A stretch of 55,992 nt of DNA from a virus (Duplodnaviria; Caudoviricetes), in IMG/VR virus record IMGVR_UViG_3300037461_000368, positions 1 through 55,992 of that record; one strand, 5' to 3'. This document shows positions 2,381-55,992 of this stretch, one piece after another (within the stretch, counting starts at the first letter, position 1; each line of letters begins with the position of its first letter). The position numbers were made by a program, and so were the translations under genes. The notes beneath the pieces were generated by a model. That model was not told the DNA's origin and searched no databases. It saw nothing but the letters and a program-made list of their open reading frames with translations.

Positions 2381-2614
2381 CTACGCGCTCCGGACCGCGT
2401 TAATGGCCGCGAGCCAAGCATCGAGCCACCGAACGATCGCGTCCCGCGCCTCGGGGAACTTCGCGAACGTGGGGAGCTTCTTGAAGACCGAGTAGCCGCT
2501 CGTCGGGGAGAACTTCCGGAGCAGCGCTCCGTCGGTCCTGAGAACGTAGGTCATGCCGCCCGGCGTCTTCCACCGGGCGTACTCAGTGTGGCCTCGTGCG
2601 CTGATCTTCGCCAT
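2381..2614 (-). CDS. Hypothetical protein, first gene of the leftward early operon
   Basis: AAGGAGGT RBS; downstream of a predicted sigma70 promoter. Confidence 0.65.
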   Translation of the reverse strand: MAKISARGHTEYARWKTPGGMTYVLRTDGALLRKFSPTSGYSVFKKLPTFAKFPEARDAIVRWLDAWLAAINAVRSA

Positions 2615-2658
2615 TCTGACCTCCTTGCGCTTTCGCGCATCTGTCTAACCTGCGTAGG

Positions 2659-2687
2659 AGCATAAGCGATCCAAATGCGCTTTTCAA
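2659..2687 (-). promoter_or_regulatory. Leftward sigma70-type promoter TTGAAA-17-TATGCT; overlaps inverted repeat CGCTTTT-N6-AAAAGCG (2678-2697, candidate operator)
   Basis: Consensus match in an AT-rich divergent intergenic region. Confidence 0.6.
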
Positions 2688-2791
2688 ATTAAAAGCGGGT
2701 AATAATCACGGATTTAATCTTTCTTTTCCTGCGTCCGCGTGCGAGCATGGATGGACGGTGGAGGTTAGACAACGTTCAGAAAGGAGGTACC

Positions 2792-3196
2792 ATGGCGCGA
2801 CTGCGACCATCTGTCTTCCGCAAGGCAATGATCGATCTCGTCGAGCGCACCCGGTCGAAGTTCTCACAACGCGAGCTCCTGCGGCGCGCGAACCTGTCTA
2901 CCGGCCTGATCGGGAAGTACCTGCGCGAAGGCGCGCTCAACCCGGACGGGTATGTGCTCCATGCGCTCTTCCGCGCGTCCGAGGTCTCGGCCGAAGACCT
3001 GATCGCGACCTGGCAGTGGTCCATGTGTCCGGCCGTCTTCTGGTCGATCGCGTTCATGGACCTGCCGGCCCCGACGGCTCAGGAGCAGGTCGACCGCCTG
3101 AAGGCTCTCCTCCTCGCCGGGAAGCTCGCGCCGATCGCAGCGCCTTCACGCCTTCTTCGGCGTCCACCTCCCGGTAGCACTCGAGAACCGTCCTGA
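2792..3196 (+). CDS. Xre-family HTH regulator, probable immunity repressor
   Basis: SQRELLRRANLSTGLIGKYLREG...P HTH; divergent from the early operon and adjacent to int; AAGGAGGT RBS. Confidence 0.6.
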   Translation: MARLRPSVFRKAMIDLVERTRSKFSQRELLRRANLSTGLIGKYLREGALNPDGYVLHALFRASEVSAEDLIATWQWSMCPAVFWSIAFMDLPAPTAQEQVDRLKALLLAGKLAPIAAPSRLLRRPPPGSTREPS

Positions 3197-4115
3197 GATC
3201 CCGATGGTCAGACAACCACATGGCCACCTCCAGCGCCACGCCAGCGCGTCTCAGCCGCGTCAGGAACGTCCGGCGCAGGTCATGGACCCTGAGCCATGGC
3301 AGCCCGGCCGACGCAACCACGGCCAGCCATACGCGTTTACCGAGCCGTCCGAAGATCCGGTCCCGAGACCGGCCGCGCCGCGACCGCAGGAGCTCCAGAA
3401 TCTCGTCCGGCACCGGCCGACCAAGGAAGGGTTGACGGCTTTTCATCTTAGCCGCCGGTATCTGCCAGACCCCGGCGTCAAGGTCAACGTCCGACCAGGT
3501 CACAGTCTCAACCGCCCCACGTCTGAGTCCTGTCAGGAGCAGGCAGAGGATTGCGCTATAGGCTCCATTTCCGGCCCTCTGGGCGCTCCCGAGCAAACGC
3601 GACTCTTCGGTAGGGGTCAGCGCCCGGACGGCCCGTGCGGGCTCCTGGTGCCGGGAAACGAGCGCTGCCGGGTTCCCGCGCACCCAGCCACGCGCACACG
3701 CATATGCGAAGAAGCTCCGGAGCGCCGCTCTCTCCCCGTTCACGGTCACGGCCGAGCGTCCCATGGCTCGGCGTATACGCAGGTAGCCGGCCAGCCGGTC
3801 GGCCGTCAGGTCGTCCAGGAGCGCGTGCGGTCCGAAGTGCCGCACCCACCGCCGTCCCATCCCGCCATAGACGACCTGGTAGCCACGGGACATGCGCGGC
3901 CGCTTCGCCTCGAGCCACGCCTCGACCGCTTCCCCGAGCTCCTGCGGCTCCGTCCCGCTCTCCCGTGCCGCGCGCCGGCGCCACCCCTCGACCACCTCGA
4001 CCGCCTCCCGGTAGAGCCGCGTCCCCGTCGAGCGCATGGTCCTCGTGCCGTCCTCGCGCACGGCCATGACGTAGTAGATCCTATTCGATCTCCGATACGG
4101 TCGCCCGTAACGCAT
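3054..4115 (-). CDS. int: Tyrosine integrase
   Basis: TGLRRG, HDLRRT, DH and C-terminal Y catalytic motifs; SAM-like N-domain (LRSFFAYA...NP); next to attP. Confidence 0.93.
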   Translation of the reverse strand: MRYGRPYRRSNRIYYVMAVREDGTRTMRSTGTRLYREAVEVVEGWRRRAARESGTEPQELGEAVEAWLEAKRPRMSRGYQVVYGGMGRRWVRHFGPHALLDDLTADRLAGYLRIRRAMGRSAVTVNGERAALRSFFAYACARGWVRGNPAALVSRHQEPARAVRALTPTEESRLLGSAQRAGNGAYSAILCLLLTGLRRGAVETVTWSDVDLDAGVWQIPAAKMKSRQPFLGRPVPDEILELLRSRRGRSRDRIFGRLGKRVWLAVVASAGLPWLRVHDLRRTFLTRLRRAGVALEVAMWLSDHRDLRTVLECYREVDAEEGVKALRSARASRRGGEPSGGRPAPEPSGPAGP

Positions 4116-4131
4116 GGTGCCACCTACCTGC

Positions 4132-4146
4132 TGCTTGCAGATTGCA
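4132..4146. promoter_or_regulatory. Candidate integrase arm-type sites, left (TGCTTGCA, AGATTGCA)
   Basis: Same octamers occur as a pair at 4367-4385 on the other side of the att core. Confidence 0.45.
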
Positions 4147-4258
4147 TGCAAGAGGCACGATACACGAGCGATCAACAGATATCAATGGGTATCACCTATC
4201 CCGCGCCGCCGTCCGTAGATAGGGTGCGTATGGGCATTTACAGCGACCGGCCAAATCC

Positions 4259-10773: not shown

Positions 10774-10778
10774 CAACC

Positions 10779-12197: not shown

Positions 12198-12199
12198 GA

Positions 12200-14495: not shown

Positions 14496-14496
14496 C

Positions 14497-15096
14497 ATGG
14501 CGATAGACCCGATCAAGTTCCAAATGGCGCGCGAGATGTTTCAGAAGACGCTCGAACGTGTCAAGCTGAACTTCGACAAGCAGGCCGTGCTTGCGATGAC
14601 GCTCTGGTCGTCGGGGACGATCAACGATCTGGCCGTCAAGCGCATGAGCGGCCGGCCGGGGGTCAATCGCCTGAGTGGGAACCTGGCGCGATCGTTCCGG
14701 CATCAGGAGAGCGGATCGACGCTTGCAGACGCGCAGACGCGGATCTACTCGACGGCCATATACTCGCGCGTGCAGGAGTACGGCGCGACGATACGGCCGG
14801 TGCGGGCACGCAAGCTCGCGATCCCGATCCCCGGCTCACCGGCCATGCGTGCGAACGGGGAGGCGCTCTTCCATTCCCCGCTACGCGCGAGCCTTGCCGG
14901 GCAGGGGATCTTTCGCGTCAAGGACGTCCTGGCGACCCGTGCGGCGAGCGGCAAGGGTATCGTCCCGTGGTTCGCGCTCAAGGACTCGGTCTACGTCCCG
15001 CCGCGTCTGAAGTTCTCCGAGACCGTGAAGGCGCGCCTGCGCGTCCTGCGCTCTGCGCTCGGCGACGCCTTCAACGCGGCGAAGAAGGGGAGTTGA
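14497..15096 (+). CDS. Neck/tail completion protein (HK97 gp10/Mu gpG-like)
   Basis: SGNLARS...YSRVQEYGATIRP...LAIP...VYVPPR. Confidence 0.75.
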   Translation: MAIDPIKFQMAREMFQKTLERVKLNFDKQAVLAMTLWSSGTINDLAVKRMSGRPGVNRLSGNLARSFRHQESGSTLADAQTRIYSTAIYSRVQEYGATIRPVRARKLAIPIPGSPAMRANGEALFHSPLRASLAGQGIFRVKDVLATRAASGKGIVPWFALKDSVYVPPRLKFSETVKARLRVLRSALGDAFNAAKKGS

Positions 15097-15103
15097 CGCA
15101 CCC

Positions 15104-15418
15104 ATGGCAACGGCGTTGACACTCTACGCGGGCGAATGGGGACACAAGATCATCGCACGCACGTACTGCGATGCGGTCTCTCGTACCTCGGCAATCCGTA
15201 TGTGCGGCAAACGCGCGAGCGACGGCACGACGTTCTCGATCGTCGCATCGCGCAGACCATCAGACACGACGTACTACGCGGTCAGCGTACCCATACCTGC
15301 GTCGTTCATGACAGGAAAAACAGGTGAGTGGTGCTGTCAGATAGAGCTTACGTTCACGACGGGTAAGTTCTATTCGCGCCCATTCTACGTTCACATTCAC
15401 GCAACACCGTCGAAGTAG
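15104..15418 (+). CDS. Small Ig-like virion protein (BppU N-terminal-like)
   Basis: Beta-rich; GEWCCQIELTF...FYSRPF.V pattern. Confidence 0.45.
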   Translation: MATALTLYAGEWGHKIIARTYCDAVSRTSAIRMCGKRASDGTTFSIVASRRPSDTTYYAVSVPIPASFMTGKTGEWCCQIELTFTTGKFYSRPFYVHIHATPSK

Positions 15419-15429
15419 GAGTATCGGAC

Positions 15430-15807
15430 ATGGCGGCAACGACTGTTTTGGAAACGGCCTTTCGCAGCACGCTCGCGGACGCGATCGACACGGCGGTCGG
15501 TGCGACGGGGCACATCAAGTTCGAGACTTCGGGCGACGCCGAAGTCGCGGACATCGTGCTCGGGAATCCGGCATTCGGCTCGGCGTCGAGCGGCGTCATC
15601 ACGCTTGAGGCGAGCACGGAGGACTCGAACTGCACGGCGGGGACGATCGAGCACGCGAGCTTGTACGCGAACACGACGAAGCTGGCCGAGTTCAACTGCA
15701 CGGCGACGGGTGGCGGCGGGACGTTCACGATGTCCTCGCTGGCGCTTGAGACCGGCGACACGCTGTCGATCGCGAGCTTCACGATTACGGTACCGAGCGG
15801 AGCATAG
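15430..15807 (+). CDS. Small fibre subunit 1 (paralog of 37469-37855)
   Basis: R..LAD.I...AFG.A..GV.T...GDT.....TITVP shared with the paralog. Confidence 0.7.
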   Translation: MAATTVLETAFRSTLADAIDTAVGATGHIKFETSGDAEVADIVLGNPAFGSASSGVITLEASTEDSNCTAGTIEHASLYANTTKLAEFNCTATGGGGTFTMSSLALETGDTLSIASFTITVPSGA

Positions 15808-15819
15808 TGCTCTGGCCTG

Positions 15820-16203
15820 ATGGCTGTTGAACTGCTCCTACTCGACTTCTCTGGTCCTGACGGCCGGGAGCCGGGGACGATCATCGACATTCGTGAATGT
15901 CCTGACGGTGGATCTGTGAAGTGGGGCCGGGCCGAGTGTCCGCCCCACTTCAAGATTCTGCACATCGACGGCGTGACGAAGAACGATCTCGACCCCTCCA
16001 TGCTTGAGTTCGGCGGGCATCGGAGTCGGATCAAGATCGACGAAGATCGCATGGACGCGAAAGACAAAGCGGACCTGCGCGCCGGGAAGAAGGCGAAGAT
16101 AGCCAAGGGCAAGCTCGTGGCCGCATCGGTCGATCGTGGCGACGAGTGGCAGCCGAAACCGGCAATCGCCGAAGAGGTCGGAGAGGGCGTCATAAAGGGA
16201 TAG
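15820..16203 (+). CDS. Fibre partner protein 1 (paralog of 26360-26839)
   Basis: Shared VELL...GR.PG....WG..E.PP.F..L motif; precedes a beta-helix repeat protein. Confidence 0.65.
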   Translation: MAVELLLLDFSGPDGREPGTIIDIRECPDGGSVKWGRAECPPHFKILHIDGVTKNDLDPSMLEFGGHRSRIKIDEDRMDAKDKADLRAGKKAKIAKGKLVAASVDRGDEWQPKPAIAEEVGEGVIKG

Positions 16204-16209
16204 CGACAC

Positions 16210-18864: not shown

Positions 18865-18881
18865 CAGAGAGGAGACCTGAC

Positions 18882-19076
18882 ATGGCAGACGTAGTGAAGC
18901 GCGTAGGCGGGCACCCGGCAGGCGTCGTCACCGTCATCAAGTGGTGGCAGAAGATGGGCCTAACCGAGGCCGAGGCTGACAAGATCCGCGCCGAGGGTCG
19001 GCAGAACGAAGTCTGGAACGCCTGGAAGGCGAAACAAGACGCGGCGAAGACAAGGGCCTGCGGCGAGTGCGAGTAG
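18882..19076 (+). CDS. Small hypothetical protein ending CGECE
   Basis: AGGAGACCTGAC RBS. Confidence 0.6.
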   Translation: MADVVKRVGGHPAGVVTVIKWWQKMGLTEAEADKIRAEGRQNEVWNAWKAKQDAAKTRACGECE

Positions 19077-19106
19077 TCGCGGCACGGGAGGTCGGCGAGA
19101 GCACGC

Positions 19107-22100
19107 ATGGCTGATCTGATCGCAACGACGGTAGACGGCGGCGGAACGGGGGACTATCTCACCCTGAACGCCGCAGAAGCCGACAACTTTGGTGCGACCA
19201 GCGCCAACCTCGTTTCCGAAGATGAGTATTGCGTCTGTAGCTGCATCTGCACGAACGGCACGGCAGACAGCACAGCTGTCACCATTGTGGGTCAGACGAC
19301 GGACGCGAGCCACACCATCACCATCACCGTGCCGCAGGCGTATCGGCATCCCGGGTACTGGGTCGATTCCGGGAATGTGTACCGGATAAACTGCTCGGCA
19401 ACACCCGTTATAGGATGGACGACTTCTAATGTCGTATACGCCGGTCTTGCTGTAAATTGTACCTCTACTGCTGCGGGGGCGGTTTGTTACGACTCGCTTA
19501 GTAGCGCGGCATCTACAAATGTGTTGATGGACGCATGTATAGGAATAGTGTCGGCCGCCGCAGCATCGACAGCAGCCTACGGAGTATATGGTCCCGAGCA
19601 TGCATCGAGTACACTTCTTGTCAAGAACTCGATATTCATAGGTGGTGGAACATCGGTCAATGAATATGGAGTAAGACATACTGCCGGAGCGCTTACGGCG
19701 CATAATGTCACGGTATGTAAGTTTAAGAGCTACGGTATCCGCGAGAGCGCATCGGGTTTTGTCGTGCAGAATTGCCTATCGTTTGGCAACGGTGGCGATT
19801 ATTTGGGCACCTTCTCCGCGCTGAGCGCCAAGAACGGATACTCGAACGGAAGCGGTCCCGGCGGCGGCAGCAACGCCATCAACCTGGGCACGGATTCGGC
19901 GGTCGTCTTCAAGGACTACGCCGGGAACGATTTCCATCTTCGGTGCGTCGGCGGCGTGGTGAACCCGGCGTTCCGTACCGGCGCCGACTTGGACGAAGAC
20001 GCGACGCTACCGGTCACGCTCGACATTGACGGCGAGACACGCCATGCGACGACGCCATGCATCGGTGCGGACGAAGCGCACGATTTCGCGGCCGCCGGCG
20101 CGGCGCTGCTCGCGGACATCTTCGGCTCGGGCGATACGGAACGCGAGATCGTTACTACGGGTGCGGCGACGATCGCTGCGATCACAGCGTCGGGACGTGC
20201 CGTCTTTGGTCCGGCGGCGACCGGTGCGGCGGCCATACCGGCCGTTACGGCAGCGGGTACGGTAAACCGCAGCTATGCCGCAGCAGGCGCGGCCACGCTC
20301 GCCCCGATCACCGCTTCGGGTCCAACGGAACGTGAGGTCGTGGCAACGGGTGCGGCCACACTCGCATCCATAACCGCGTCGGGGACGACGGAGCGCGAAG
20401 TCGTTGCTTCTGGCGCGGCTACACTTGCAGCCATAACGGCGTCGGGTGTCGCAAACAGGAGCTACAGTGCTACGGGTGCAGCGACCCTGGCCCCCGTCAC
20501 GGCGAGCGGGTACGTCGGGCTCGATTACTACGTCGATGCCACGGGAGGCAGTGACTCCAATTCGGGCCATCAAACCGGCGCTGCATGGAAGACTATCGCG
20601 AAGGTAAACGCTATAGCGCTTCAGCCTGGAGATGCTGTATATCTGAAACGTGGAGCTCTTTGGCGTGAAATGTTGACGGTTCCCGGAAGCGGTATTCTGG
20701 GGAGTCCAATTACATTCACAGCCTATGGGGAAGGGGCTAATCCGCAGTTAATAGCATCGGATCTGATTTCCGTGTGGTTGGATGGTGGGGGCAACATATG
20801 GAGCGCCACAGTAACCACGTCCCCAGCACAAGTATTTTTTGATAGGGCGCGGGGAAACAAAAAAACAGAACTCATTAGCGTTACAGTGGCGGGCGATTGG
20901 TACTGGGCAGACAATGTATTGTACACCTATTGCGTGGGTGATCCGTCGACATACCATAGCAACAATGGTGTCGAGGCTAGTAGCCGCGCTCGTGCAATAG
21001 CGATCCAAGGCAAGGCATACATTGTCGTCTCAAGCATCGATGTGATGCATGCGAATGGCGACGGGAATATTACATCGTGGGGCGTTGGCGGAACCAATAT
21101 AACAATTAGCAATTTAACTACATCTTACTCGGCCAGCCAAGGCGTTAATTGGTTGTCGACGAATGTGACGATATCGAATGTTGTAGCACATCACAATGGG
21201 CTCAGCTCGCAACATCATGGATTCTACCCATCACACGACGACAACACAGAAGCAAGTGGGTTCCTTATCGAGAACTCTGAAGCGTCATATAGTTCTGGAT
21301 TCGGCTTCCATTTATATCAGTGTGGAGGGGGAACTGTTCGTTCTTGCCATGGACACAACAACAGCAAAGCGGGGCTTATAGTCGATAGTCTAATTGCGAA
21401 CGAGGAAGTAAACGTCTACTATTCCATCTTTAATGAAAATGCAACAGAAGGAATAAAAACAACGGCGCTAGGGTCTGGCTGTAAGATGGCTGTATTGAAC
21501 TGTGTCTCATATGGGAATGCAGCCGAAGGGATGCTAACATTTGTAAACAATAGCGCCACATCGATAACCATTAAGAATTGCATCTTCTGTTTGAATGGTG
21601 CGGAGCAGTTTCGGCACCACGATTCACCGTCTCCATATACGTTAGACTACAATGCGTTCTACAAGGCTTCTGGCAATATAATTCGTTGGTGTGGCACGTC
21701 ATATACAACGGCACAGTTCGCCGCGTACAAGTTGGCATCCGGCCAAGATTCGCATTCGATCGTAGTAGACCCGCTATTCGTGAATGCGGCATCAGCAAAC
21801 TTTCGTCTTCTGCCGACTTCTCCCTGTATCGATGTCGGAGTCGATGTCGGCCTGACGGAAGACTTCGTGGGGGTCGAGCTCCCGCAGTTTGAAGGGTTCG
21901 ATATCGGCGCGTACGAGATAATGTGCTTCGGCGCGGCTACGGTCCCCACGATCACGGCGTCGGGGACGACTGAACGCGAGGTCGTAGCTTACGGCGCGGC
22001 AACGGTCCCCACGATCACGGCGCAGGGCGCGACCGAGCGCGAGGTCGTAGCCGCAGGCGCGGCATTCCTTGCCGCCATCGAAGCGATCGGAACCGTCAAC

Positions 22101-22691
22101 CGCTCGTATGCCGCTTCCGGCGCGGCGACCTTCCCAACCATCCGAGCGGGCGGCGGAACCGAGCGCGAGGTCGTCGCTTCCGGCGCGGCGACGCTCTCCG
22201 CAATAACGGCATTCGGGAAGGTTTCCATTGAGGCCGGGGGCGTCAAACCCATCTCGGACCGCATCATCGAGAACCTCGTCGATACGCTCGAAGACGTGAC
22301 CGAGACCGCCGGCTACAACCGCACGCTGCGGACCGTCACCGACAAGCTCACCATCCCGACAAGCGCGTTGCGCGATATCGCCTTCGTCGCAGGCGTCCGG
22401 GAAGCGAAGAAGTACGCCTCGTGCAACAACGTCGTCCAGAGCACGATGACCGTCCTTATCAACGTCGTCGTCGAAGAGGGCGACGACCTGACGCTCGCCG
22501 TCCGTCAGGCGGCGGCCGACGTCGAGAAGATCCTGCATGTTGACCCCAAACGTGGCGCGCTCGCCTGCGACACGAAGATCGTATCCGTTGAGTATGAAAC
22601 GTTCAGCGATAATGAACCGCTCGGGTCGTGTACGCTCGAAGTGGAGATCCTGTACCGGCACAGAGCAAACGACCCGTACACGGTCGTGTGA
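19107..22691 (+). CDS. Repeat fibre protein B: beta-helix + 7 repeats + beta-helix + 5 repeats + C-terminal tail-terminator (lambda gpU-like) domain
   Basis: YYVDATGGSDSNSG...AWKTI..VN and DIGAYE domain borders; last ~150 aa (RIIENLVDTLE.V....GYN...LEVEILYRH...DPY) sits just before the tail tube gene. Confidence 0.8.
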   Translation: MADLIATTVDGGGTGDYLTLNAAEADNFGATSANLVSEDEYCVCSCICTNGTADSTAVTIVGQTTDASHTITITVPQAYRHPGYWVDSGNVYRINCSATPVIGWTTSNVVYAGLAVNCTSTAAGAVCYDSLSSAASTNVLMDACIGIVSAAAASTAAYGVYGPEHASSTLLVKNSIFIGGGTSVNEYGVRHTAGALTAHNVTVCKFKSYGIRESASGFVVQNCLSFGNGGDYLGTFSALSAKNGYSNGSGPGGGSNAINLGTDSAVVFKDYAGNDFHLRCVGGVVNPAFRTGADLDEDATLPVTLDIDGETRHATTPCIGADEAHDFAAAGAALLADIFGSGDTEREIVTTGAATIAAITASGRAVFGPAATGAAAIPAVTAAGTVNRSYAAAGAATLAPITASGPTEREVVATGAATLASITASGTTEREVVASGAATLAAITASGVANRSYSATGAATLAPVTASGYVGLDYYVDATGGSDSNSGHQTGAAWKTIAKVNAIALQPGDAVYLKRGALWREMLTVPGSGILGSPITFTAYGEGANPQLIASDLISVWLDGGGNIWSATVTTSPAQVFFDRARGNKKTELISVTVAGDWYWADNVLYTYCVGDPSTYHSNNGVEASSRARAIAIQGKAYIVVSSIDVMHANGDGNITSWGVGGTNITISNLTTSYSASQGVNWLSTNVTISNVVAHHNGLSSQHHGFYPSHDDNTEASGFLIENSEASYSSGFGFHLYQCGGGTVRSCHGHNNSKAGLIVDSLIANEEVNVYYSIFNENATEGIKTTALGSGCKMAVLNCVSYGNAAEGMLTFVNNSATSITIKNCIFCLNGAEQFRHHDSPSPYTLDYNAFYKASGNIIRWCGTSYTTAQFAAYKLASGQDSHSIVVDPLFVNAASANFRLLPTSPCIDVGVDVGLTEDFVGVELPQFEGFDIGAYEIMCFGAATVPTITASGTTEREVVAYGAATVPTITAQGATEREVVAAGAAFLAAIEAIGTVNRSYAASGAATFPTIRAGGGTEREVVASGAATLSAITAFGKVSIEAGGVKPISDRIIENLVDTLEDVTETAGYNRTLRTVTDKLTIPTSALRDIAFVAGVREAKKYASCNNVVQSTMTVLINVVVEEGDDLTLAVRQAAADVEKILHVDPKRGALACDTKIVSVEYETFSDNEPLGSCTLEVEILYRHRANDPYTVV

Positions 22692-41104: not shown

Positions 41105-41157
41105 GACACCCCACCTCCTGAGCGTCTCTTTTTCGGTTTGCCGCCGGTGCTCTTGCG

Positions 41158-41409
41158 TCAGGTCTCCTGGGTGCCGGCGGCCTTTTCTTCCTGCCGCCGC
41201 TCTTCCTTCATCGCAAGCAGCTCCTCGGCCTGCTCGCGTATCTTCGCCGTCATGCCGGCGTAGGCTGCGTAATGGTTGCAGTCGAACGTGCAGCCGATCG
41301 GCTTATCGCCACGCGCAATCTTCATGACGCATACGACCGATTGCGCGGCGTAGTGCAGGCACTGCCACGGGCACCCAACGAACTTCGACCTGCTTTCATC
41401 GTCGATCAT
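41158..41409 (-). CDS. Small Cys-rich hypothetical protein
   Basis: GAGGT RBS; CPWQC, C..DC. Confidence 0.55.
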   Translation of the reverse strand: MIDDESRSKFVGCPWQCLHYAAQSVVCVMKIARGDKPIGCTFDCNHYAAYAGMTAKIREQAEELLAMKEERRQEEKAAGTQET

Positions 41410-41744
41410 AGTACCTCGATTCTTGCGTCACGATTCGACCAGCACCAGGAACGGAACAGCGTCAGGAGCCGGAACGCCTGCCGCTCGCGTTCCGTCCGGC
41501 AGCCCTGGAGGGCGACCAGGCCGTATGCGAGCCCGTTTAGCGCGTCTCCGCACCGCATGCCGTCAATGCAGGCGAGACCACGCAGCGGGCAGAGCGCGTG
41601 CGATAAGAGCGGCTCAAGCTCAACCGGGATATCCATGGCGGCGATGTCCGAGTCCTCATTATCCCCATGCCACGTCTCGTGGTGGGTCGCGACGAACGGG
41701 ATCTCGTCCGTCTCGGGATCGCGCAGAACGACGTGGAAGACCAT
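41406..41744 (-). CDS. Hypothetical protein
   Basis: TGATG coupling to the upstream ORF. Confidence 0.5.
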   Translation of the reverse strand: MVFHVVLRDPETDEIPFVATHHETWHGDNEDSDIAAMDIPVELEPLLSHALCPLRGLACIDGMRCGDALNGLAYGLVALQGCRTERERQAFRLLTLFRSWCWSNRDARIEVL

Positions 41745-42253
41745 CAGCGGAAAAGGAACGTGCAGCCGCCAGGCTTCTCCGGCTTCGCCCAGGTCTTTTG
41801 CGCGTACTTCCAGTCGGTCCAATCGGACCATACCGATGCCACGGTGGCGACTCGCGCACGGAACCGATAGAGACCGTCCGGCAGCGCGGTCATGACAGTG
41901 TAGACGGCGATCCGTTCCACGCCATCGACCGTCGTCCACGGCAGCTCTTGGCCTGTCCTCGTGACGCTGATCGTCTGCACGGCATCGAACGGCGTCACGC
42001 CTTTCGCGACCTCGATCTCCGCCTTCTCGATCGGGGTCGTCTGTACGTCCCATGCGAGCTTCACCGTCTCGGTGCCGAAGATTACGAACGGATCAATTGC
42101 CGTTCCCGTCCCGACCTGCACGGGGTCAGTCGCAAACAGCATCGTCCCCATCACTACGCCTGCAAGGTACCGCACCGTTCCATCCTTTCTGTTGTTGACC
42201 GTTGAGCTATGCGCGATCTCGCGTGCGAGTTCACGTATCGTCTCGTCGTGCAT
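41744..42253 (-). CDS. FN3-like domain protein, possibly exported
   Basis: LAWD...LPDGLYRFRARV...WSDW. Confidence 0.55.
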   Translation of the reverse strand: MHDETIRELAREIAHSSTVNNRKDGTVRYLAGVVMGTMLFATDPVQVGTGTAIDPFVIFGTETVKLAWDVQTTPIEKAEIEVAKGVTPFDAVQTISVTRTGQELPWTTVDGVERIAVYTVMTALPDGLYRFRARVATVASVWSDWTDWKYAQKTWAKPEKPGGCTFLFR

Positions 42254-42550
42254 AGGTCACCTCCCACCCCTTCCCGTCGCGCACGACGAGCACCCACTCG
42301 AACCAGGGATAGAGCGCGGCGGCGACCTTGAATTTCACTCGCGCGTCGTCCCGCATGAACCCCTTGACCTCGTGGAACTCGACGAGCCCATCGGCAAGGA
42401 TCACAAGGAAATCCGGTTTGTACCATGTGTCTTCGGCGAGCTTGAATGACGCCGGCTCGTAGACCCATGCCGCTATCTCCCCGGCGAGCCGCTTCAGTTC
42501 GAGCGTCTCGGCATAGCGTACTTCCGTCTTGGACCGGAAGCGCGCAATGC
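42231..42550 (-). CDS. DUF1064-like PD-(D/E)XK endonuclease (start uncertain)
   Basis: SKTEVRYA..L...YEP....YKPDF......HEVKGF...A.VKFK. Confidence 0.75.
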
Positions 42551-43291
42551 TTCGATCTCCGTGAGCTCTGGCAGGTACAACCTTGCACCCGGGAGTACGG
42601 TCTGGATGTCCGCCTTCTCCCACGTGGTAAGATTCGATAGCGGGTTGAGATTGAAAACGCCGCCGGGGAAAGCTCCAATGTCCTTGTACTCGAGCCAATC
42701 TTTTATCTCCTGGTGGTCGCGGGTATCGCCGCTTCGCTTCAGCGGCGCACAGCGGACGTCGCGTCCGCCGGTATCCTGTGTGCAATACTCGGCCGAGCCG
42801 ACAAAGTAGGCGTCGCAGCCGAGCAGGTAGACATTCTTCGCGCCGAGCTTTCGCGCCAAGACGACGGCCGCCGTCGATACCGTGTTGTTGCAGAAAAGCG
42901 AATCGTCGTCCATCTTCACGTCGCTACATTGCGCGAACTGGTGGTAGACGTGGACGCTTTCGCGTCGTTTAAAAGCCGTGCAGCCGTAGAGCCATTCGGC
43001 GCTCTTTCGCTTGCAGACGATCGCCGTCCACTCCTCATACGGATGTGGTTTGTATCGATCGGTGCAGGTGATATCGTTCCAAAGGTGATACGACGGCGGG
43101 AAGAGAAACACGGCATCGTTGAGCGCGATTGTCAGCCGGCCGTTCAGGAGCGAGAAGTCGAAGTCTCGCAGGCTCGTGCCGGTCCCGACCACGAAGACGT
43201 CCTCGCCTTCGCACTCGTTGCGTAGGGATATAATCGTACGCATCGGGTACTCAATTGAACTGCCGTGTAGCCGCTCGCTGTGACTTTGCAT
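42494..43291 (-). CDS. MAF/DUF115-like (sialyltransferase-type fold) protein
   Basis: VFVVGTGTSL, IALND, LGAKNVYLLGCD, NLNPLS. Confidence 0.7.
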   Translation of the reverse strand: MQSHSERLHGSSIEYPMRTIISLRNECEGEDVFVVGTGTSLRDFDFSLLNGRLTIALNDAVFLFPPSYHLWNDITCTDRYKPHPYEEWTAIVCKRKSAEWLYGCTAFKRRESVHVYHQFAQCSDVKMDDDSLFCNNTVSTAAVVLARKLGAKNVYLLGCDAYFVGSAEYCTQDTGGRDVRCAPLKRSGDTRDHQEIKDWLEYKDIGAFPGGVFNLNPLSNLTTWEKADIQTVLPGARLYLPELTEIEALRASGPRRKYAMPRRSN

Positions 43292-43427
43292 CGCACTCTT
43301 CCTCGATCTCCTTCTTCACGAAGAGAATGGCCGCCTGCATGCTCAGGAGCATGCTTGCTGTCTTCTCGGCGATCTCCGCGAGCGCCTCGGCGAAAAGCTG
43401 GAGCTGTTTCGATTTCTTGTTTTCCAC
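43251..43427 (-). CDS. Small hypothetical protein
   Basis: GTG with GGAGGAGG RBS. Confidence 0.5.
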   Translation of the reverse strand: MENKKSKQLQLFAEALAEIAEKTASMLLSMQAAILFVKKEIEEECDAKSQRAATRQFN

Positions 43428-43472
43428 GGTTCTTTCCTCCTCCCTGTGACGATGTGTATATGCGTATACGTC

Positions 43473-43625
43473 GCGAGCAGCGCGCATTCGTCCAGACCTA
43501 CGAATGTGGAACTTGGGCTATATGTGATAGTGCGTATGGCGCTGATACAGGCCGTGCGGTCTACGGCGCTCCTTTCTTTCCTTCTTTTCCAAGGGAACGA
43601 AACGGAGACCCTGCGCGCTGCTCGC
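43473..43625. ncRNA. Candidate structured ncRNA or cis-element (multi-branch, 14-bp closing stem)
   Basis: GCGAGCAGCGCGCA / TGCGCGCTGCTCGC enclosing 3-4 hairpins; non-coding. Confidence 0.5.
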
Positions 43626-43639
43626 TGCGGAACGTAAGA

Positions 43640-43701
43640 GAAAAGATGCGGGGCGGGACTCACAGGTAGGTGGTTAGACTTCAAGGAGGTGCCCGCCCCG
43701 C
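43640..43701 (-). terminator. Terminator-like hairpin (10-bp GC stem, 34-nt loop) after the methyltransferase gene
   Basis: GCGGGGCGGG/CCCGCCCCGC followed by ATCTTTTC on the minus strand. Confidence 0.55.
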
Positions 43702-43707
43702 GAGGTA

Positions 43708-44226
43708 TCATGCTCGGATCCCGTACCAGGTCGTCCCAGCCGGGCGGGGAATCGTCCCGACGGTCAAGGTCGGGAAGAGCTCGGCTGGAATAGCTCCCAG
43801 GATATCAGACTCCGAGAGATTGCGATAGTAGTTTCCTCCAGGTCCGGCCACTTTTGCGTACGCCTTCCCTTGCCCCCCGTGGGGCTTCCGGCCGGGTCCG
43901 GCGCAGGTCCCGAAGAAGAGCCCGCCAGGGGCCGTAAATCGCGCCATGGCTGCGAGCGACAGCTCCCAGTAGGGATCATGCTCAAGCGTCTCGGTCGAGA
44001 ACACGGTGCCAAATTGAGCGTCTGGCGCGAAGTCGTGCGCGAGCGCGACTACGTCCACGTTCGGACCAGGGACGGCGTCCACGCCGGTGAAGATACAGTC
44101 ATGAAAGAGCTCCCGGACGCTGCCGTTTATGTTGCGCGCGCCGATCTCGAGGACGCGCTGATCGCGGAAAAACTCCGGTCGAAGGCAGCGTATCATTTCG
44201 ACGAATGAACGGACTTCGGGATGCAT
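43708..44226 (-). CDS. Class I SAM-dependent methyltransferase
   Basis: VLEIGARNINGSVR, GVD..PGPNVD, STETLEHD, PGG. Confidence 0.85.
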   Translation of the reverse strand: MHPEVRSFVEMIRCLRPEFFRDQRVLEIGARNINGSVRELFHDCIFTGVDAVPGPNVDVVALAHDFAPDAQFGTVFSTETLEHDPYWELSLAAMARFTAPGGLFFGTCAGPGRKPHGGQGKAYAKVAGPGGNYYRNLSESDILGAIPAELFPTLTVGTIPRPAGTTWYGIRA

Positions 44227-44234
44227 ATGCGCTC

Positions 44235-44807
44235 CTATAGTTGTGCGAGCTCGCCTTCCATCTTGAAACGGTGAAACACATACAGACCCGGCAGCAGGTA
44301 GATACGCCTCCCGGATGCACGGATACGGCGGTGGATCTCATAATCGACGCGGCCGAACCCGTGCGGCGCGCCGCCGATCGCCGTCCATGTCGCCTTCGAT
44401 ACGGCGAAGAAAAACCCCGAGAACGGCATGCCGCGCTTGTCCTGCTCGACGTCGGTCACGTCGATGACCGCGGAGCCATGCTCACGCATACGGTCGTCTG
44501 CAATCTTGCAATGGTGAAGGATGCGATCGTCATCGCGGTTGACGTTGACGAGCTGCCACATGCTCTTCTTGGGGTTGAGCCGGTTCGTGCAGGCCACGAA
44601 AGCCCCGGCGCCGGGGTCGTTCGCGATCGCGGCGGCAATGACGCGGAACCACTTACGCGAGCACAGCGCCACGTCATGGTCCATCATGACGGCCCAGTCG
44701 TCCACGCCGAGCAGCGCCATGGCCTTGTTGTACGCGAGTCCGACGTCCATCCCCGGCGGGTCCCCCTCGCAAGGCTCGCAGTGCGGCATGAAGATGTAGA
44801 TACTCAC
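44235..44807 (-). CDS. GT-A/GT2-like glycosyltransferase
   Basis: GLAYN, MMDHDV (DxD), SGFFFAV, VD, LPGLYVFH. Confidence 0.7.
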   Translation of the reverse strand: MSIYIFMPHCEPCEGDPPGMDVGLAYNKAMALLGVDDWAVMMDHDVALCSRKWFRVIAAAIANDPGAGAFVACTNRLNPKKSMWQLVNVNRDDDRILHHCKIADDRMREHGSAVIDVTDVEQDKRGMPFSGFFFAVSKATWTAIGGAPHGFGRVDYEIHRRIRASGRRIYLLPGLYVFHRFKMEGELAQL

Positions 44808-45385
44808 CCCTTGATCTCCTTCCCGTATGGTTCTTCCCAGTGGCTCCAATGGAAGACGTACCAGCCCGGGAGCAGGTAGACGCGCCGACCGGCCGCCCGC
44901 AGGCGCCGGTGGATCTCCCAGTCGCACTCGCGTATCCTGGTAATGGGCCCGATCTGCATCCACGCCTTCTGCTGGATCACGAACGCCATGCCTGAGAGCG
45001 GCTTGTGCCCGGCCTGCTCGATATCGGTGACGTCGATCGTCTTCGTGCCGTGCTCTTTCGCGAGCCGCGCGCCGAGCGCGAAGTGCTTCACGATATCGCG
45101 TTCGTACTCGTACTCCTCGGGGACCATCTGCCAGGACGAGACCCAGCGCATGAGCCGGTTCGTCATGGCGCAGAAGGCTCCGGCCTCGGGGTGCTCACCG
45201 ATCGCCTTTCGCAAGAGCCGGTCCCACGTCGTGCGTGTCGTCTGGCAAACGTCCTGGTCCATGACGCAGAGCCAGCAGTCAGGATCGAAGTGCCAGAAGA
45301 GCTCGTTGTATCCGCAGCCGATATCGTATCCCTGCGGCTCCCCGGCGTCGGGTCGGCACATGGGGACTACGGTGTAGAGTTGCAC
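44804..45385 (-). CDS. GT-A/GT2-like glycosyltransferase (tandem paralog)
   Basis: GCGYN, VMDQDV, SGMAFVI, LPGWYVFH; clearly paralogous to the previous gene. Confidence 0.7.
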   Translation of the reverse strand: MQLYTVVPMCRPDAGEPQGYDIGCGYNELFWHFDPDCWLCVMDQDVCQTTRTTWDRLLRKAIGEHPEAGAFCAMTNRLMRWVSSWQMVPEEYEYERDIVKHFALGARLAKEHGTKTIDVTDIEQAGHKPLSGMAFVIQQKAWMQIGPITRIRECDWEIHRRLRAAGRRVYLLPGWYVFHWSHWEEPYGKEIKG

Positions 45386-45726
45386 GGCGGTCTCCCCATT
45401 ACAACGGTAGAGTAAAGATCAGCGCGTGATGTGCCGCGCGGTATATGGATTGACATCTCTGGCGCTGTAATGTTGTAGCGCGGGGAGATGAAATGAAACT
45501 CGCATGTTACGAGCCGACCCGCCATGCGTCGAAGCGCTTCATGCTCGGCCGCCGTGAAGCACGAGAAATCCTGCCCGACGCCGATCTTGAAGACCAACTT
45601 CTCAGGTAGGATGAGCTCGTGAACGTATCGGCTCTTGAGCACCGCGCCGAGTGCGCTTGCCGGAATGACGAGCGGGAAGAACACCGCCGCGAACTTGCCG
45701 AAGAATGCACGTCTCGTGTCGGTCAC
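45367..45726 (-). CDS. Hypothetical protein with twin-arginine-like N-terminus
   Basis: TRRAFF followed by a hydrophobic stretch; GGAGG RBS. Confidence 0.5.
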   Translation of the reverse strand: MTDTRRAFFGKFAAVFFPLVIPASALGAVLKSRYVHELILPEKLVFKIGVGQDFSCFTAAEHEALRRMAGRLVTCEFHFISPRYNITAPEMSIHIPRGTSRADLYSTVVMGRPPCNSTP

Positions 45727-46079
45727 TTCTCTACCTCCTTTCGGTTCCCTTCCCTTAGCCAATCGAGCGCATCCGCCGGCCACTCGAACACCGGAATCCC
45801 GGCCGCAATCGCCGCCGTCCGCTCACGCCACGCGCCGTCAGACGCGACCGAGCCATACCCCATGACGACGCAGTCGCACCGATTCATAATCTCGATGTAC
45901 CGTGCGATGAACTGCTCGTCTGATATGCAGCCGCCGAAGAACGCCGAGTTGAGATGCGGGCACACAACCGCGAACCCCCCGATCCACAGGATCTCGGCGA
46001 CGTTCGCCGCACGGTCGATGTTGTGCCGGACTTCGATCTCCGTCTTCCCGCGATAGGGACCGGCGACGTAAGCGATCAT
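45723..46079 (-). CDS. DUF4406/DUF1937-like (nucleoside deoxyribosyltransferase-fold) protein
   Basis: YVAGPY, CPHLN, RCD, SDGA..E...A...GIPVF. Confidence 0.8.
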   Translation of the reverse strand: MIAYVAGPYRGKTEIEVRHNIDRAANVAEILWIGGFAVVCPHLNSAFFGGCISDEQFIARYIEIMNRCDCVVMGYGSVASDGAWRERTAAIAAGIPVFEWPADALDWLREGNRKEVEK

Positions 46080-46330
46080 CGTTCTCTCGTCTCCCATGAA
46101 TCGCAGCTCCAGTCCGCGTGGACGAATCGGCCGTCGCTGACACAGAGCTTCTCGCCGCCATACTTCGTGCACGTGTAGACCTTGCCGGGGCAGTTGACGC
46201 GGTCGCGGACGTACACGTGCTTACAGTTGTCGCACCGCTTTGGGTGCGGCCGAAGGTTCGGCGGCTCGCATTCCATGTCAACTCCGATCCGATCCACGTT
46301 CCCGCACTTCGAGCATTTGCACCAGATCAT
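46076..46330 (-). CDS. Cys-rich zinc-binding protein
   Basis: CSKC, CDNCKH, C..Y, CDSW. Confidence 0.6.
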   Translation of the reverse strand: MIWCKCSKCGNVDRIGVDMECEPPNLRPHPKRCDNCKHVYVRDRVNCPGKVYTCTKYGGEKLCVSDGRFVHADWSCDSWETRER

Positions 46331-46911
46331 CGTTTCTTCTCCACAAACATGAGCCCCGAGTGGTAGTGAACGGCCTCGATGTCTCGTACCGCCGTGGGGC
46401 ACCGCGAGCGGTCGCCGTTCACATGGTCAACGAAACGGTGCAGGATCGCCGGCCCGTTCACTTCGCATCGGAACTCCTCCCACCACTGACAGAACGAGTC
46501 CTCGATCACATAGAACCCTCCCGGCACGACGAGCGGCCAGAGCGCGTGGAAGGCGTGCTCTATGTCCGTCGCCTTGTGGCTCCCGTCGTCAACGACGACG
46601 CGCAGGTCGAGCTCGCCGAGCGACGACAGCAGCCGCGTCTCGTCGGCCACGTCGCACAGCGTGAAGACCCACCGATCCCGATTCGGCACCTTGTGCGCGC
46701 ATTCGATATCGACGCCGTAGACGGTGGCGTTCGGAAAGTAGTCGAGCCACATCTTGATCGACGCGCCGCGGCGGACGCCGATCTCGAGCAGGTTGAAGCG
46801 CTCGTCCCGGAACGGCGCGAAGTACCGCTCGTACACGGGACAGTACCCGTGCGTCGCCTTGTCGGTCGCGTAATGCTCGGCGAGCTCGTGTAGCGTTGGC
46901 GGGATCGTCAT
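46327..46911 (-). CDS. Sugar O-methyltransferase-like (MycE/TylE-type) SAM enzyme
   Basis: TDK..HGY..YE.YF, LLEIGV..GAS..MW..YF, DDGSH, GGFYVIED. Confidence 0.8.
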   Translation of the reverse strand: MTIPPTLHELAEHYATDKATHGYCPVYERYFAPFRDERFNLLEIGVRRGASIKMWLDYFPNATVYGVDIECAHKVPNRDRWVFTLCDVADETRLLSSLGELDLRVVVDDGSHKATDIEHAFHALWPLVVPGGFYVIEDSFCQWWEEFRCEVNGPAILHRFVDHVNGDRSRCPTAVRDIEAVHYHSGLMFVEKKR

Positions 46912-47561
46912 GGCTGCTCTTCTCCCCATTCTCCGGACGCGATCAGCTCCTTGCGCCGGGCGTCGGCGCTTGCTATGGCGTCCTTGTGGTCCCGAGCTGA
47001 GCAGCAGCCGATCAGCCACCAAACCTTGTCGGTCGGGTTCTTCCCGTGCGGCGCTGGGACGAGCTTCCAGTCGGCCAGCGGCTTGTCGTCGGCAACCGCG
47101 CAGGCTTGCTCAACCTTCCCGTCCCGCCACAGGATGACGACATACTTCGGGTCCGGCAGGTCTTCCCACGGCGTGTTTGCGGCAAGCATCTGCGCGCGCT
47201 TCTCGTTCGCGATCTTCACGGCGTGCTTCGCGTCGCGCGCGTAGCAGGTGCCGTACAGGATCTGCGGACGCGAAGACTCTCCGAGCAATCGATTCCTTGA
47301 AACGAGTGTCCAATTGTTGCCGTCTTGCGCGGGACTATCCCAGTACGATTGCTTGACATACTCAACGGTCCCGTCGCGTCGCATCTTGATGTACCAGACC
47401 TTCTCTCCTTCGTTCCACCCAGGCGCGTCACACTCCCACTCGGCGGGGTCGTTGCTTTCGCTGTTTATTTTGCTATACGCGACGGCGCGCGCAAGCGTCG
47501 TGAACACCCCGGTGACGCGGTAGTCCGAATACTCGCCGGCCGACGTTACCCACACCTTCAT
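46908..47561 (-). CDS. Hypothetical phage protein with duplicated ARD..A...A...R motif
   Basis: GEYSDY.V.GVF start; internal repeat. Confidence 0.65.
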   Translation of the reverse strand: MKVWVTSAGEYSDYRVTGVFTTLARAVAYSKINSESNDPAEWECDAPGWNEGEKVWYIKMRRDGTVEYVKQSYWDSPAQDGNNWTLVSRNRLLGESSRPQILYGTCYARDAKHAVKIANEKRAQMLAANTPWEDLPDPKYVVILWRDGKVEQACAVADDKPLADWKLVPAPHGKNPTDKVWWLIGCCSARDHKDAIASADARRKELIASGEWGEEQP

Positions 47562-55034: not shown

Positions 55035-55992
55035 TTACGCTCCTTCCTGCGTGAGCGCGCCTTCGGGCGGCTCGGCCTTGAACTTTCGCCACTCTTCGCG
55101 AACGCGGTGGACGGCGACCTCGGCGCGCTTGTCCGTCAGGTCTGCGATACTCTTGACGCCCGCGACCGTGGTGCCGTCTTTCCCCTCGAACTCCGTCAGC
55201 CGTTCCAGGATTCCGCCCGCGACGCCCTTATCGCCGTCGGCCATCTCAAGGAGCATGTCGGCGATCTCCTTCTTGGTCGCGTTCATGGTCCCCTTCCCGG
55301 TCGCCGCCTGCGCCTGCCGCTCCTCGCTGCCACGGTACGTGATCCCCGGGATACGGCCGGGGTCCTTGCCGGCGGCCTTGAGCGCGCCGATCACTTCGTC
55401 CTTCGAGAACGTGAGCGCGAGCAACTTGCGCGTGGCGCGTCCGCGAGCGCGCGATATCGCCGTGTTGCGGACGTGCGATCTCCGGATCTCCGAGAGCGGC
55501 AACCGGCGCGGACGTTTCTTGCCGTCCGGTCCCGTCTCGGTGCCGTTGAAGAACCCGTCGCTCGTCGCCGCCGAACTCGAGTCCGTCAGGTAGCGTCCCT
55601 GAAATTTCGCGGTCGTCGTCGCGAAGAACTCGATCACGGGGCCGCGCTCATCGTTATAGTGGACGGCATCGACCTTCGTGTCGTCGAAGACGACGCCGAA
55701 GAACTGCGCGAACTTCAAGGCGCCCGTCTCGGCGAGGTACGGCTTGTCGCCCGTCATCACCCAGTCGCTGGGGTCCGTCTCCTGGATCGCGAGCGCGCGT
55801 AGACCTCGGTGGATCTGGATCATGTCCTTGGCGCGTGCCAGCGTATGCTCGCCCCACGCCTCGGTCGGCAGGAGCGGGGAGGTCGTGGCCGATCGCGCGG
55901 CGGCGAGCTCGGCCTGGTCGTTCACACGGATCGGCGCGAGCGATGTCGGCGCCACTTCCGGCGCGTATTCCTCCTCGTACGGGTCGTGTCCG
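55035..55992 (-). CDS. Putative single-strand annealing protein (allele B; 5' end beyond the window)
   Basis: Open to the window edge; paired with the exonuclease. Confidence 0.65.
   Translation of the reverse strand, partial: GHDPYEEEYAPEVAPTSLAPIRVNDQAELAAARSATTSPLLPTEAWGEHTLARAKDMIQIHRGLRALAIQETDPSDWVMTGDKPYLAETGALKFAQFFGVVFDDTKVDAVHYNDERGPVIEFFATTTAKFQGRYLTDSSSAATSDGFFNGTETGPDGKKRPRRLPLSEIRRSHVRNTAISRARGRATRKLLALTFSKDEVIGALKAAGKDPGRIPGITYRGSEERQAQAATGKGTMNATKKEIADMLLEMADGDKGVAGGILERLTEFEGKDGTTVAGVKSIADLTDKRAEVAVHRVREEWRKFKAEPPEGALTQEGA
55288..55992 (+). repeat. Diverged copy of positions 1-708
   Basis: First 99 bp identical, then many substitutions and one 3-bp indel. Confidence 0.95.

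Follow-up and report, generated by a model that had tools for sequence, protein, structure and literature searches.

Why does the loop of a hairpin at the end of one gene unit repeat the two short words that stand before the start codons of two divergent genes elsewhere in the same genome? The question is raised by positions 43648-43701 of the Caudoviricetes record IMGVR_UViG_3300037461_000368, which consists of one contig of 55,992 bases (~62% G+C) from a wetland metagenome and was analysed at its full length (the window). An earlier note on this DNA had pointed out that the loop mirrors the leaders of both genes at the lysis/lysogeny switch, and had proposed a trans-acting antisense or decoy RNA. 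The sequences quoted there, and the positions given for the hairpin and the leaders, are all present in the DNA, and the mirroring itself is real and non-random. Antisense pairing by the RNA of the minus strand is, judged from sequence and predicted folding, the best single explanation, although an unproven one. In the following, leader A precedes a plus-strand gene for a helix-turn-helix-like (HTH-like) protein of 134 amino acids (aa), and leader B precedes the first gene (77 aa) of the leftward operon.

The two words, each of 8 nucleotides (nt), are box 1 (GGTTAGAC) and box 2 (AAGGAGGT), the latter with the Shine-Dalgarno tract. Box 1 is found in three copies (0.93 expected; three were reached in 7 of 100 shuffles) and box 2 in four (0.88 expected; four were reached in 1 of 100 shuffles). 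A genome-wide count of box 1, the check suggested in the earlier note, is therefore not significant by itself; it is the pair of boxes that lies far above chance. All three copies of box 1 are followed downstream, on the same strand, by box 2, with gaps of 10 nt in leader A, 16 nt in leader B and 3 nt in the hairpin, and a single pair of this kind is expected 2.3-4.8 x 10^-4 times per genome (the estimate is post hoc). Among the 71 gene start regions of the genome only two carry both boxes. Twelve of the 16 gap nucleotides of leader B belong to a self-contained GCGC-GAAA-GCGC hairpin (2638-2627), which stands between the two boxes. A relaxed search, with the 11-mer and up to two mismatches, returned 6 sites against 9.2 expected genome-wide, which is below expectation and thus indicates no wider family of sites.

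The stem arms of the 43648-43701 hairpin, GCGGGGCGGG (43648-43657) and CCCGCCCCGC (43692-43701), are complementary at 10 of 10 positions. The loop reads ...CAGGTAGGTGGTTAGAC-TTC-AAGGAGGTG on the plus strand and CACCUCCUUGAAGUCUAACCACCUACCUGUGAGU on the minus strand, and it is mostly open in the predicted fold (-26.3 to -26.5 kcal/mol). On the minus strand the stem begins 6 nt past the methyltransferase stop codon at 43708 and is followed by the tail AUCUUUUCUCUU; on the plus strand no U-rich tail follows. The U-rich tail, which adjoins the stem on its 3' side and is confined to the minus strand, gives the hairpin a terminator-like appearance; the earlier claim that the locally transcribed minus strand would expose the complement of both boxes agrees with this position and orientation. 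The hairpin ranks among the strongest terminator-like structures at gene-unit ends and, as in an intrinsic terminator, its stem is rich in G+C, follows a stop codon and precedes a U-tract on the strand that is transcribed. The short loop of the consensus (3-8 nt) is not found here, the loop being 34 nt long, and a consensus scanner gave no report of the site.

The loop was compared with the 71 start regions in pairing and match tests, for which composition-matched shuffled loops served as controls. In the plus sense, exact matches of at least 8 nt connect the loop with five of the 71 regions, and the integrase site is one of these with 11 nt; the loop segment CAGGTAGGTGG is an exact copy of the ribosome-binding region of the integrase gene. 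For shuffled loops the probability of at least five matched regions is 0.02, and that of a longest match of at least 11 nt is 0.0145. The reverse complement of the loop gave no match in any of the 71 regions. When the free loop was co-folded with the start regions, the two strongest differences in free energy (ddG) were those of leader A (-21.2 kcal/mol, rank 1) and leader B (-18.5 kcal/mol, rank 2), with a mean of -8.0 and a standard deviation of 4.0 across the 71. Rank 3 (-17.8 kcal/mol) was taken by the leader of a 58-aa open reading frame (ORF) located after the hairpin. In the predicted complex of the free loop with leader B the GAAA hairpin is kept and two 8-bp helices are formed, giving a three-way junction, in line with the earlier suggestion that this hairpin brings the two boxes together.

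Our tentative reading, held with somewhat less than even confidence, is that the hairpin is a terminator or a 3'-end RNA whose loop pairs with the switch leaders. It would constitute the terminator or stable 3' end of a leftward (early) transcript of ~14 kb, and the large open loop would serve as an anti-leader, holding ACCUCCUU, GUCUAACC and CCACCUACCUG. The loop would pair with the Shine-Dalgarno region and an adjacent specificity (address) box of the first genes in other units. Its targets would be the 134-aa HTH-like gene, which is in the cI position, and the 77-aa first gene of its own operon; further targets would probably be the integrase gene and the 58-aa ORF just downstream. Provided that the RNA exists and ends at the hairpin, and that the loop is free, the pairing would hide the ribosome-binding sites, possibly create substrates for RNase III, and alter translation. 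The decision genes would be translated less once the early operon had been transcribed to its end.

One ~14-kb unit is predicted, with leader B at its 5' end and the hairpin at its 3' end, since the minus-strand genes are tightly packed from 2614 leftwards, via the contig ends, to 43708. The transcript start expected from the sigma-70-like promoter TTGAAA-17-TATGCT lies 1-3 nt 5' of box 1 in leader B, so that this box is predicted to be located at the free 5' end of the leftward mRNA. Pairing through the loop would explain why the two boxes, and not the sequence between them, are common to three otherwise unlike sites, as well as the variable spacing, the antisense orientation of the third copy in respect to local transcription, and its position in a loop. 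Flexible spacing (3, 10 and 16 nt) also fits RNA pairing better than it fits a rigid protein site.

A bolder form of the same idea, in which the hairpin works as a transcription-distance clock, appears quite unlikely to us. The terminator hairpin would be made only after the polymerase had crossed the ~14-kb early leftward operon; its loop, a multi-target anti-leader RNA, would then shut off the translation of each lysogeny/early unit's first gene and lock the decision, with the leaders carrying address tags. The units meant here are the repressor-position gene, the first early gene of the hairpin's own mRNA, the integrase gene and the first ORF of the next unit.

Table 1. Positions of the hairpin, the leaders and the associated genes in the window.
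Feature	Coordinates	Strand	Details
Hairpin	43648..43701	-	all-G/C 10-bp stem and 34-nt loop (43658-43691)
Box 1 in loop	43672..43679	+	GGTTAGAC in plus sense; GUCUAACC in minus-strand RNA
Box 2 in loop	43683..43690	+	AAGGAGGT in plus sense; ACCUCCUU, anti-Shine-Dalgarno tract, in minus-strand RNA
Integrase-matching loop segment	43663..43673	+	CAGGTAGGTGG, 2 copies in genome
U-rich tail	43634..43647	-	AUCUUUUCUCUUAC, directly 3' of stem; 8 U in first 12 nt
Leader A, of 134-aa HTH-like gene	2760..2794	+	GGAGGTTAGAC-N10-AAGGAGGT-ACC-ATG
Leader B, of leftward operon	2612..2651	-	AGGTTAGAC-AGAT-GCGCGAAAGCGC-AAGGAGGT-CAGA-ATG
Integrase leader	4116..4150	-	CAGGTAGGTGG at 4130-4120, 4 nt before ATG 4115
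Leader of 58-aa ORF, after hairpin	43428..43449	-	UCACAGGGAGGAGGAAAGAACC-GUG; 79% complementary to minus-strand loop over 19 nt
134-aa orphan protein, probable Cro/C1-type HTH	2792..3196	+	sole rightward gene between divergent promoter region and convergent integrase
77-aa orphan protein, first gene of leftward operon	2381..2614	-	five strands and one long helix
Sigma-70-like leftward promoter TTGAAA-17-TATGCT	2659..2687	-	2 sites in 1-kb region against shuffle mean of 0.1
Tyrosine integrase	3054..4115	-	Pfam PF00589, 3.7e-14
S-adenosylmethionine (SAM)-dependent methyltransferase	43708..44226	-	last gene ahead of hairpin
58-aa ORF	43251..43427	-	coding-like codon score; first gene past 280-nt non-coding spacer

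Two kinds of known RNA are close to the proposed one in working principle. The c4 RNA is encoded in the same operon as its target, just upstream of it, and is released by processing; the original work on it is said to have described targeting through two boxes. The CI RNA of P4 is another trans-acting phage immunity RNA. In the parts of PMC12197685 and PMC8201110 that concern it, the c4 RNA of P1/P7 is described as a 77-nt RNA acting in trans on the ant/icd mRNA, with short loop-borne tracts thought to pair around the ribosome-binding site and so to stop a gene of the immunity circuit from being translated. The hairpin is like c4 in that its mostly unpaired loop offers two 8-nt tracts, the complements of box 1 and of the Shine-Dalgarno tract in both leaders, A and B. 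Unlike c4, it gives no match to the Rfam C4 model, and it takes the form of one hairpin with a large loop that closes a 14-kb operon at its 3' end, not of a processed RNA just upstream of its target: leader B is located ~14 kb upstream, and leader A and the integrase gene belong to other units. The proposed targets also differ: c4 acts on an antirepressor, and the hairpin would act on the gene in the repressor position, on the first early gene and on the integrase gene.

In the icaR mRNA of Staphylococcus aureus, an anti-Shine-Dalgarno motif of the 3'-UTR (3' untranslated region) pairs with the 5' Shine-Dalgarno region of the same mRNA, which, according to PMC3868564, blocks initiation and creates a substrate for RNase III. 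In the phage, the Shine-Dalgarno tract of leader B and the anti-Shine-Dalgarno tract of the hairpin are complementary and lie at the predicted ends of one unit, a putative single transcript deduced from gene packing. The icaR mRNA is short with a long 3'-UTR, whereas the ends are about 14 kb apart in the phage, so the action would be effectively in trans; several other leaders are matched as well, and a specificity box (GUCUAACC) stands beside the anti-Shine-Dalgarno tract. On this reading, the hairpin would resemble c4 and icaR in working principle and be a member of neither family.

A parallel, which is not evidence, is offered by the start-associated sequences (SAS) and extended SAS (ESAS) of cluster K mycobacteriophages. 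As far as the consulted text of PMC3203893 goes, these are short asymmetric tags with a Shine-Dalgarno core, located 3-7 bp before the starts of non-structural genes; the SAS is a 13-bp tag of roughly 10-20 genes per genome, several genomes have a single copy in the opposite orientation, and the authors left open whether the binding partner is RNA or protein. The phage studied here likewise has a Shine-Dalgarno-associated leader tag and a single reversed copy. Its sequence is different, the full tag is limited to two leaders, and the copy in reverse lies within the loop of a hairpin; neither by sequence nor by genes was a relationship to cluster K found, and the tag, though similar in concept, does not belong to that family.

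If the pairing is real, a regulatory RNA inside a terminator loop would couple the end of early transcription to the translation of lysis/lysogeny genes, and such RNA would occur in a phage lineage without a cultured relative. The small set of trans-acting phage immunity RNAs (c4 and P4 CI) would gain a different architecture. There would also be a testable explanation for leader tags adjacent to Shine-Dalgarno tracts, such as the start-associated sequences of actinobacteriophages (PMC3203893, in part).

Several results weigh against the pairing of the loop with the switch leaders. In a local alignment of the loop with the genome, ungapped or gapped, leader A is the best non-self match (25.5), a score reached in 1 of 20 random genomes; leader B received no score, owing to the long gap between its boxes. 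By raw duplex energy, the stretch with leader A comes no higher than about 10th among the 5594 windows of the genome. When the stem stays closed in the co-fold, leader A alone beats the shuffled loops (0.015, as compared with 0.675 for B and 1.0 for the integrase leader); this control is harsh, since co-folding cannot represent loop-to-target pairing. A rough accessibility correction ranks A 2nd and B 13th of the 71, the latter rank being distorted because the GAAA hairpin of B is wrongly forced open. The integrase leader falls to 14th by co-fold ddG once its own hairpin is counted, and the number of strong targets is marginal in respect to shuffled loops (0.067). The counts of single 8-mers are not significant on their own. 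The earlier antisense proposal as a whole is partly supported, by the sequences, their non-random co-occurrence, the gene context and the predicted pairing.

The gene starts and the hairpin itself raise further difficulties. Public gene calls begin the 134-aa gene at ATG 2828 instead of ATG 2792, a start for which box 2 of leader A would not serve as the ribosome site; ATG 2792 is preferred here because of its perfect Shine-Dalgarno tract, with a spacing that is short (GGAGG and 4 nt; in leader B, GGAGG and 5 nt). A 34-nt loop with an interrupted U-tract is atypical of an efficient intrinsic terminator. Perfect 10-bp hairpins with loops of 3-40 nt occur at chance frequency (6 pairs against 5.07 expected per genome), and the hairpin alone folds no better than its shuffles (z -1.2 on the minus strand and -0.85 on the plus strand). 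The 298-nt spacer shows significant structure on both strands, the plus strand being the better folded of the two (z -3.88 and 0 of 200 shuffles at -123.7 kcal/mol, against z -2.88 for the minus strand). The joint repression of a cI-position gene and the first lytic gene also has no obvious logic.

On the same side stands the search for relatives. No close relative, whether cultured or not, turned up in the collections searched. Among 5.8 billion sequences, the proteins of 134 aa and 77 aa have no match but themselves, and no phage with the same switch or hairpin was found in searches with the terminase, integrase, methyltransferase, capsid, loop, motif and DNA. Against phage records, megablast of positions 1-20000 and blastn of the spacer (43200-43800) gave no match, and blastn of 2100-3300 matched 72 records over just 70 nt of the Xis-like gene. 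In IMG/VR, no related locus was confirmed via the 134-aa protein or the methyltransferase, the exact 35-nt loop string had no match, and the large terminase recovered 18 loci, the best of them (45% identity) on a 6-kb contig not reaching any switch. The gapped motif was found in 91 stretches of IMG/VR; the 80 listed have a single match each and come from unrelated, mostly low-GC families, and among the matches listed the words represent a gene end and the next ribosome site. The integrase matched 13 loci in metagenome contigs (best 57% over 102 aa, on a non-syntenic, low-GC contig of 1.1 kb), and the capsid protein matched in 21 of 401 genomes of one candidate host phylum (best 36% identity). 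Rfam gave no family at gathering score in the whole window and nothing relevant at E up to 10 in 43250-43800. As for transcripts, the only run listed with the phage is a DNA run, which may be its source, and no RNA run is listed.

Contigs of the source run revealed a second, coexisting strain. It shows 19 differences in 43001-43109, for the most part at third codon positions, and 11 differences plus three insertions in 43701-43762; the 591 nt in between (43110-43700), with the 58-aa ORF, the spacer and all but the last base pair of the hairpin, are identical. Divergence sets in exactly at the outer base of the stem. The patches look like mosaic recombination tracts, one of them ending at this base. 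A module boundary or recombination edge and conservation of the element both fit this pattern, which is weak evidence for the proposed pairing.

Among the other explanations, the one that survives best is that the hairpin is a plain intrinsic terminator and its loop a decaying duplicate of the repressor-gene leader, that is, homology without a function in trans; we consider it rather unlikely. The loop and leader A are colinear (GGT.GG.GGTTAGAC / TTCA / AAGGAGGT /.CC), and the plus strand just 3' of the stem, GAGGTATCATG, resembles GAGGTACCATG of leader A at 10 of 11 positions (E 30, which by itself is not significant). Such an origin is in keeping with the mosaic recombination around the hairpin and with the fact that chance alone yields 10-bp hairpins. 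A neutral relic should, however, decay evenly, and the intact blocks are exactly the two which are shared with the otherwise unlike leader B; moreover, the copy is placed precisely in the loop of a perfect stem, and leader A does not contain the additional 11 nt that match the integrase site. If antisense pairing is not true, the locus would be an ordinary large-loop terminator with a leader relic.

Distinctly unlikely is a role of box 1, or of a longer asymmetric site, as the DNA-binding site of a phage regulator, with an operator on either side of the divergent promoters and one more site at a distance, as in the operator/stoperator system of cluster A mycobacteriophages. Leaders A and B have an exact 10-nt AGGTTAGACA in common, in inverted orientation and 110 nt apart, around the promoter region, and the Xis-like gene shows nucleotide similarity to the excise genes of L5/D29-type phages. 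Monomeric repressors on asymmetric 13-mers, at operators and intergenic sites, are documented in PMC9283540; for the L5 and TipsytheTRex repressors the sites are described there at the lytic promoter and in intergenic gaps, with more than 20 asymmetric 13-mers per genome, all oriented with transcription, and a two-domain repressor of 183 aa. The phage is similar in having short asymmetric sites at the leftward promoter and in an intergenic gap of a temperate phage. It differs in having only three sites, with a relaxed search below chance, and in the absence of detectable relatives of its 134-aa protein. One of the sites is reversed: those in A and B are in sense and the hairpin copy is antisense to the minus-strand genes, thus opposed to local transcription, whereas stoperator function is orientation-dependent according to PMC9283540. 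A protein site accounts neither for AAGGAGGT and TTCA beside the third copy (chance about 4e-4) nor for the variable spacing. A more usual operator candidate is also at hand, the palindrome CGCTTTT-CAAATT-AAAAGCG (7+7, 2678-2697) in the divergent promoter region, which overlaps the -35 element of the leftward promoter-like site and may be a conventional operator.

That a chance hairpin and chance word matches were picked by eye is, in our estimate, very doubtful. The finding is post hoc, and neither the single 8-mer counts nor the frequency of such hairpins nor several of the energy controls reach significance, but the hairpin is the third joint occurrence of both 8-mers (chance expectation 2-5e-4), and this copy is found in a hairpin loop, 6 nt after a stop codon, together with an 11-nt match to yet another leader (P 0.0145).

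It is highly improbable that the plus strand is the functional one, with a structured non-coding RNA over the spacer and a loop displaying the leader look-alike as a decoy for a leader-binding factor or for ribosomes. The better fold of the spacer on this strand speaks for it, as do a long-range, perfect 14-nt inverted repeat (43473-43486 and 43612-43625), which encloses 125 nt of non-coding spacer, and a plus-strand terminator-like site at 43551-43567. The latter, however, lies upstream of the hairpin and would exclude it from the RNA. No promoter-like site was detected on either strand in 43200-44000, no U-tail follows the hairpin on the plus strand, and the flanking genes and the whole region are coding on the minus strand. 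The decoy alternative of the earlier note is therefore left without promoter or terminator support.

Equally improbable is a purely local element, in which hairpin, tail and spacer control read-through into the 58-aa ORF or its translation and the matches to distant leaders are by-products of Shine-Dalgarno-like composition: the complementarity of the loop to the leader of this ORF (Table 1), its third rank by ddG, and the minimum-energy fold of the 298-nt minus-strand spacer, where the U-rich tail pairs with the Shine-Dalgarno tract of the ORF, agree with it, but the non-Shine-Dalgarno box GGTTAGAC common to both switch leaders is left unexplained, as is the 11-nt integrase match.

Some smaller candidates were tried and rejected. 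A minus-strand ORF of 122 aa running across the hairpin, with an ATGA overlap with the methyltransferase stop codon, is non-coding (codon score -45.8). A plus-strand gene start served by AAGGAGGT of the loop has no start codon at 4-12 nt, and the ATG found 19 nt past it opens a frame of only 34 codons, antisense to the methyltransferase gene. In the case of GGTTAGACA as a -35 element, a -10-like hexamer at the proper distance is present in site A only. Leader B could be read as nut-like, with a GNRA hairpin coming after a box, but neither site A nor the hairpin copy fits this.

The label of a lysis/lysogeny switch is a fair description of the region of the 134-aa, 77-aa and integrase genes. 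As the earlier note had it, the leaders belong to this switch: they flank the tyrosine integrase gene, a tRNA-Pro attP core and a gene for an Xis-like protein of the HTH_17 family (1.5e-14), the second one of the leftward operon. The feature set of a temperate switch is thus present, i.e. integrase, attP, an excisionase-like gene and a divergent HTH regulator, the HTH nature of the last being weakly supported. A 3' fragment of tRNA-Pro (4274-4305) lies just upstream of the integrase gene and is followed by a canonical plus-strand terminator; from its sequence it is a typical attP core. ARAGORN found no whole tRNA around 4274-4350, and the tRNA-Pro 3' end does not indicate the host, as the 46 matching stretches are spread over many phyla. 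A promoter-like site, TTGATA-17-TATCGT (4185-4157), is located upstream of the integrase leader.

The 134-aa gene holds the classical position of a repressor gene, standing alone between the divergent promoters and the convergent integrase gene, and its product is, on these grounds, a probable repressor. The earlier designation as the repressor goes further than the findings do: besides position, only a sub-threshold Pfam match to a Cro/C1 HTH (HTH_26, E 0.17, residues 23-71) and look-alikes from a language-model protein atlas point to such a function. The look-alikes all belong to HTH_3/31/26 clusters at a score of 0.93, which 4-10% of shuffled proteins also reach. The AlphaFold2 model, made with no alignment, is all-helical with a predicted local distance difference test score (pLDDT) of 50.5, too poor for a fold search. 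Taken together, these results hint weakly at an HTH regulator. The 484-aa plus-strand ORF (3204-4658) that had been set beside the repressor gene as a gene is not one: with a codon score of -42 it is a shadow frame of the minus-strand integrase gene. Over 143 nt (3054-3196) the 134-aa gene shares its DNA with the convergent integrase ORF, with poor coding scores in both frames there (-6.9 and -21.2), so one or both gene ends may be mis-set. For the 77-aa protein, the model (pLDDT 69) gave no PDB match at E up to 0.001 and has no recognisable fold.

In respect to the overall layout, the contig ends are imperfect copies of ~705 bases (1-708 and 55288-55992), about 90% identical and with one indel of 3 nt. 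In appearance they are two strain alleles of one gene which close a circular or terminally redundant genome, and not an exact assembly overlap; the minus-strand genes at both ends were accordingly treated as contiguous. The plus strand carries a siphovirus-like late operon, with the large terminase (6939-8276), portal, protease, capsid, tape measure and tail fibres. On the minus strand, five further genes follow beyond the 280-nt non-coding gap and reach 41158. The distal leftward region (41158-47022) codes for two methyltransferases, a family-2 glycosyltransferase and an MptE/sialyltransferase-like protein, thus functions of the sugar/surface-modification type, which may possibly serve lysogenic conversion.

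The earlier caveat that the anti-Shine-Dalgarno-like CTCCT also occurs in other hairpin loops (4322, 41115) is correct. At the convergence of the late and leftward genes (41105-41190), a small hairpin displays another anti-Shine-Dalgarno tract in its loop, CCCACCUCCUGA, and is followed by a strong terminator-like hairpin on the plus strand (13 bp, -26.3 kcal/mol), located within the 3' end of the minus-strand gene 41158-41409. An 18-nt element, CGTATACGCATA[G/T]ACACA on the minus strand, has two copies (748-765 and 43453-43470) that are identical at 17 of 18 positions, each of them 20-26 nt upstream of a start codon on the minus strand (ATG 728 and GTG 43427, respectively); it could be a second shared leader or promoter element. 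Recurring pairs of 8-mers in 17500-22300 (around 18139, 18265, 18643, 20412, 21930 and 22161) are repeated coding units within two large genes of the tail region, 16210-18864 and 19107-22691.

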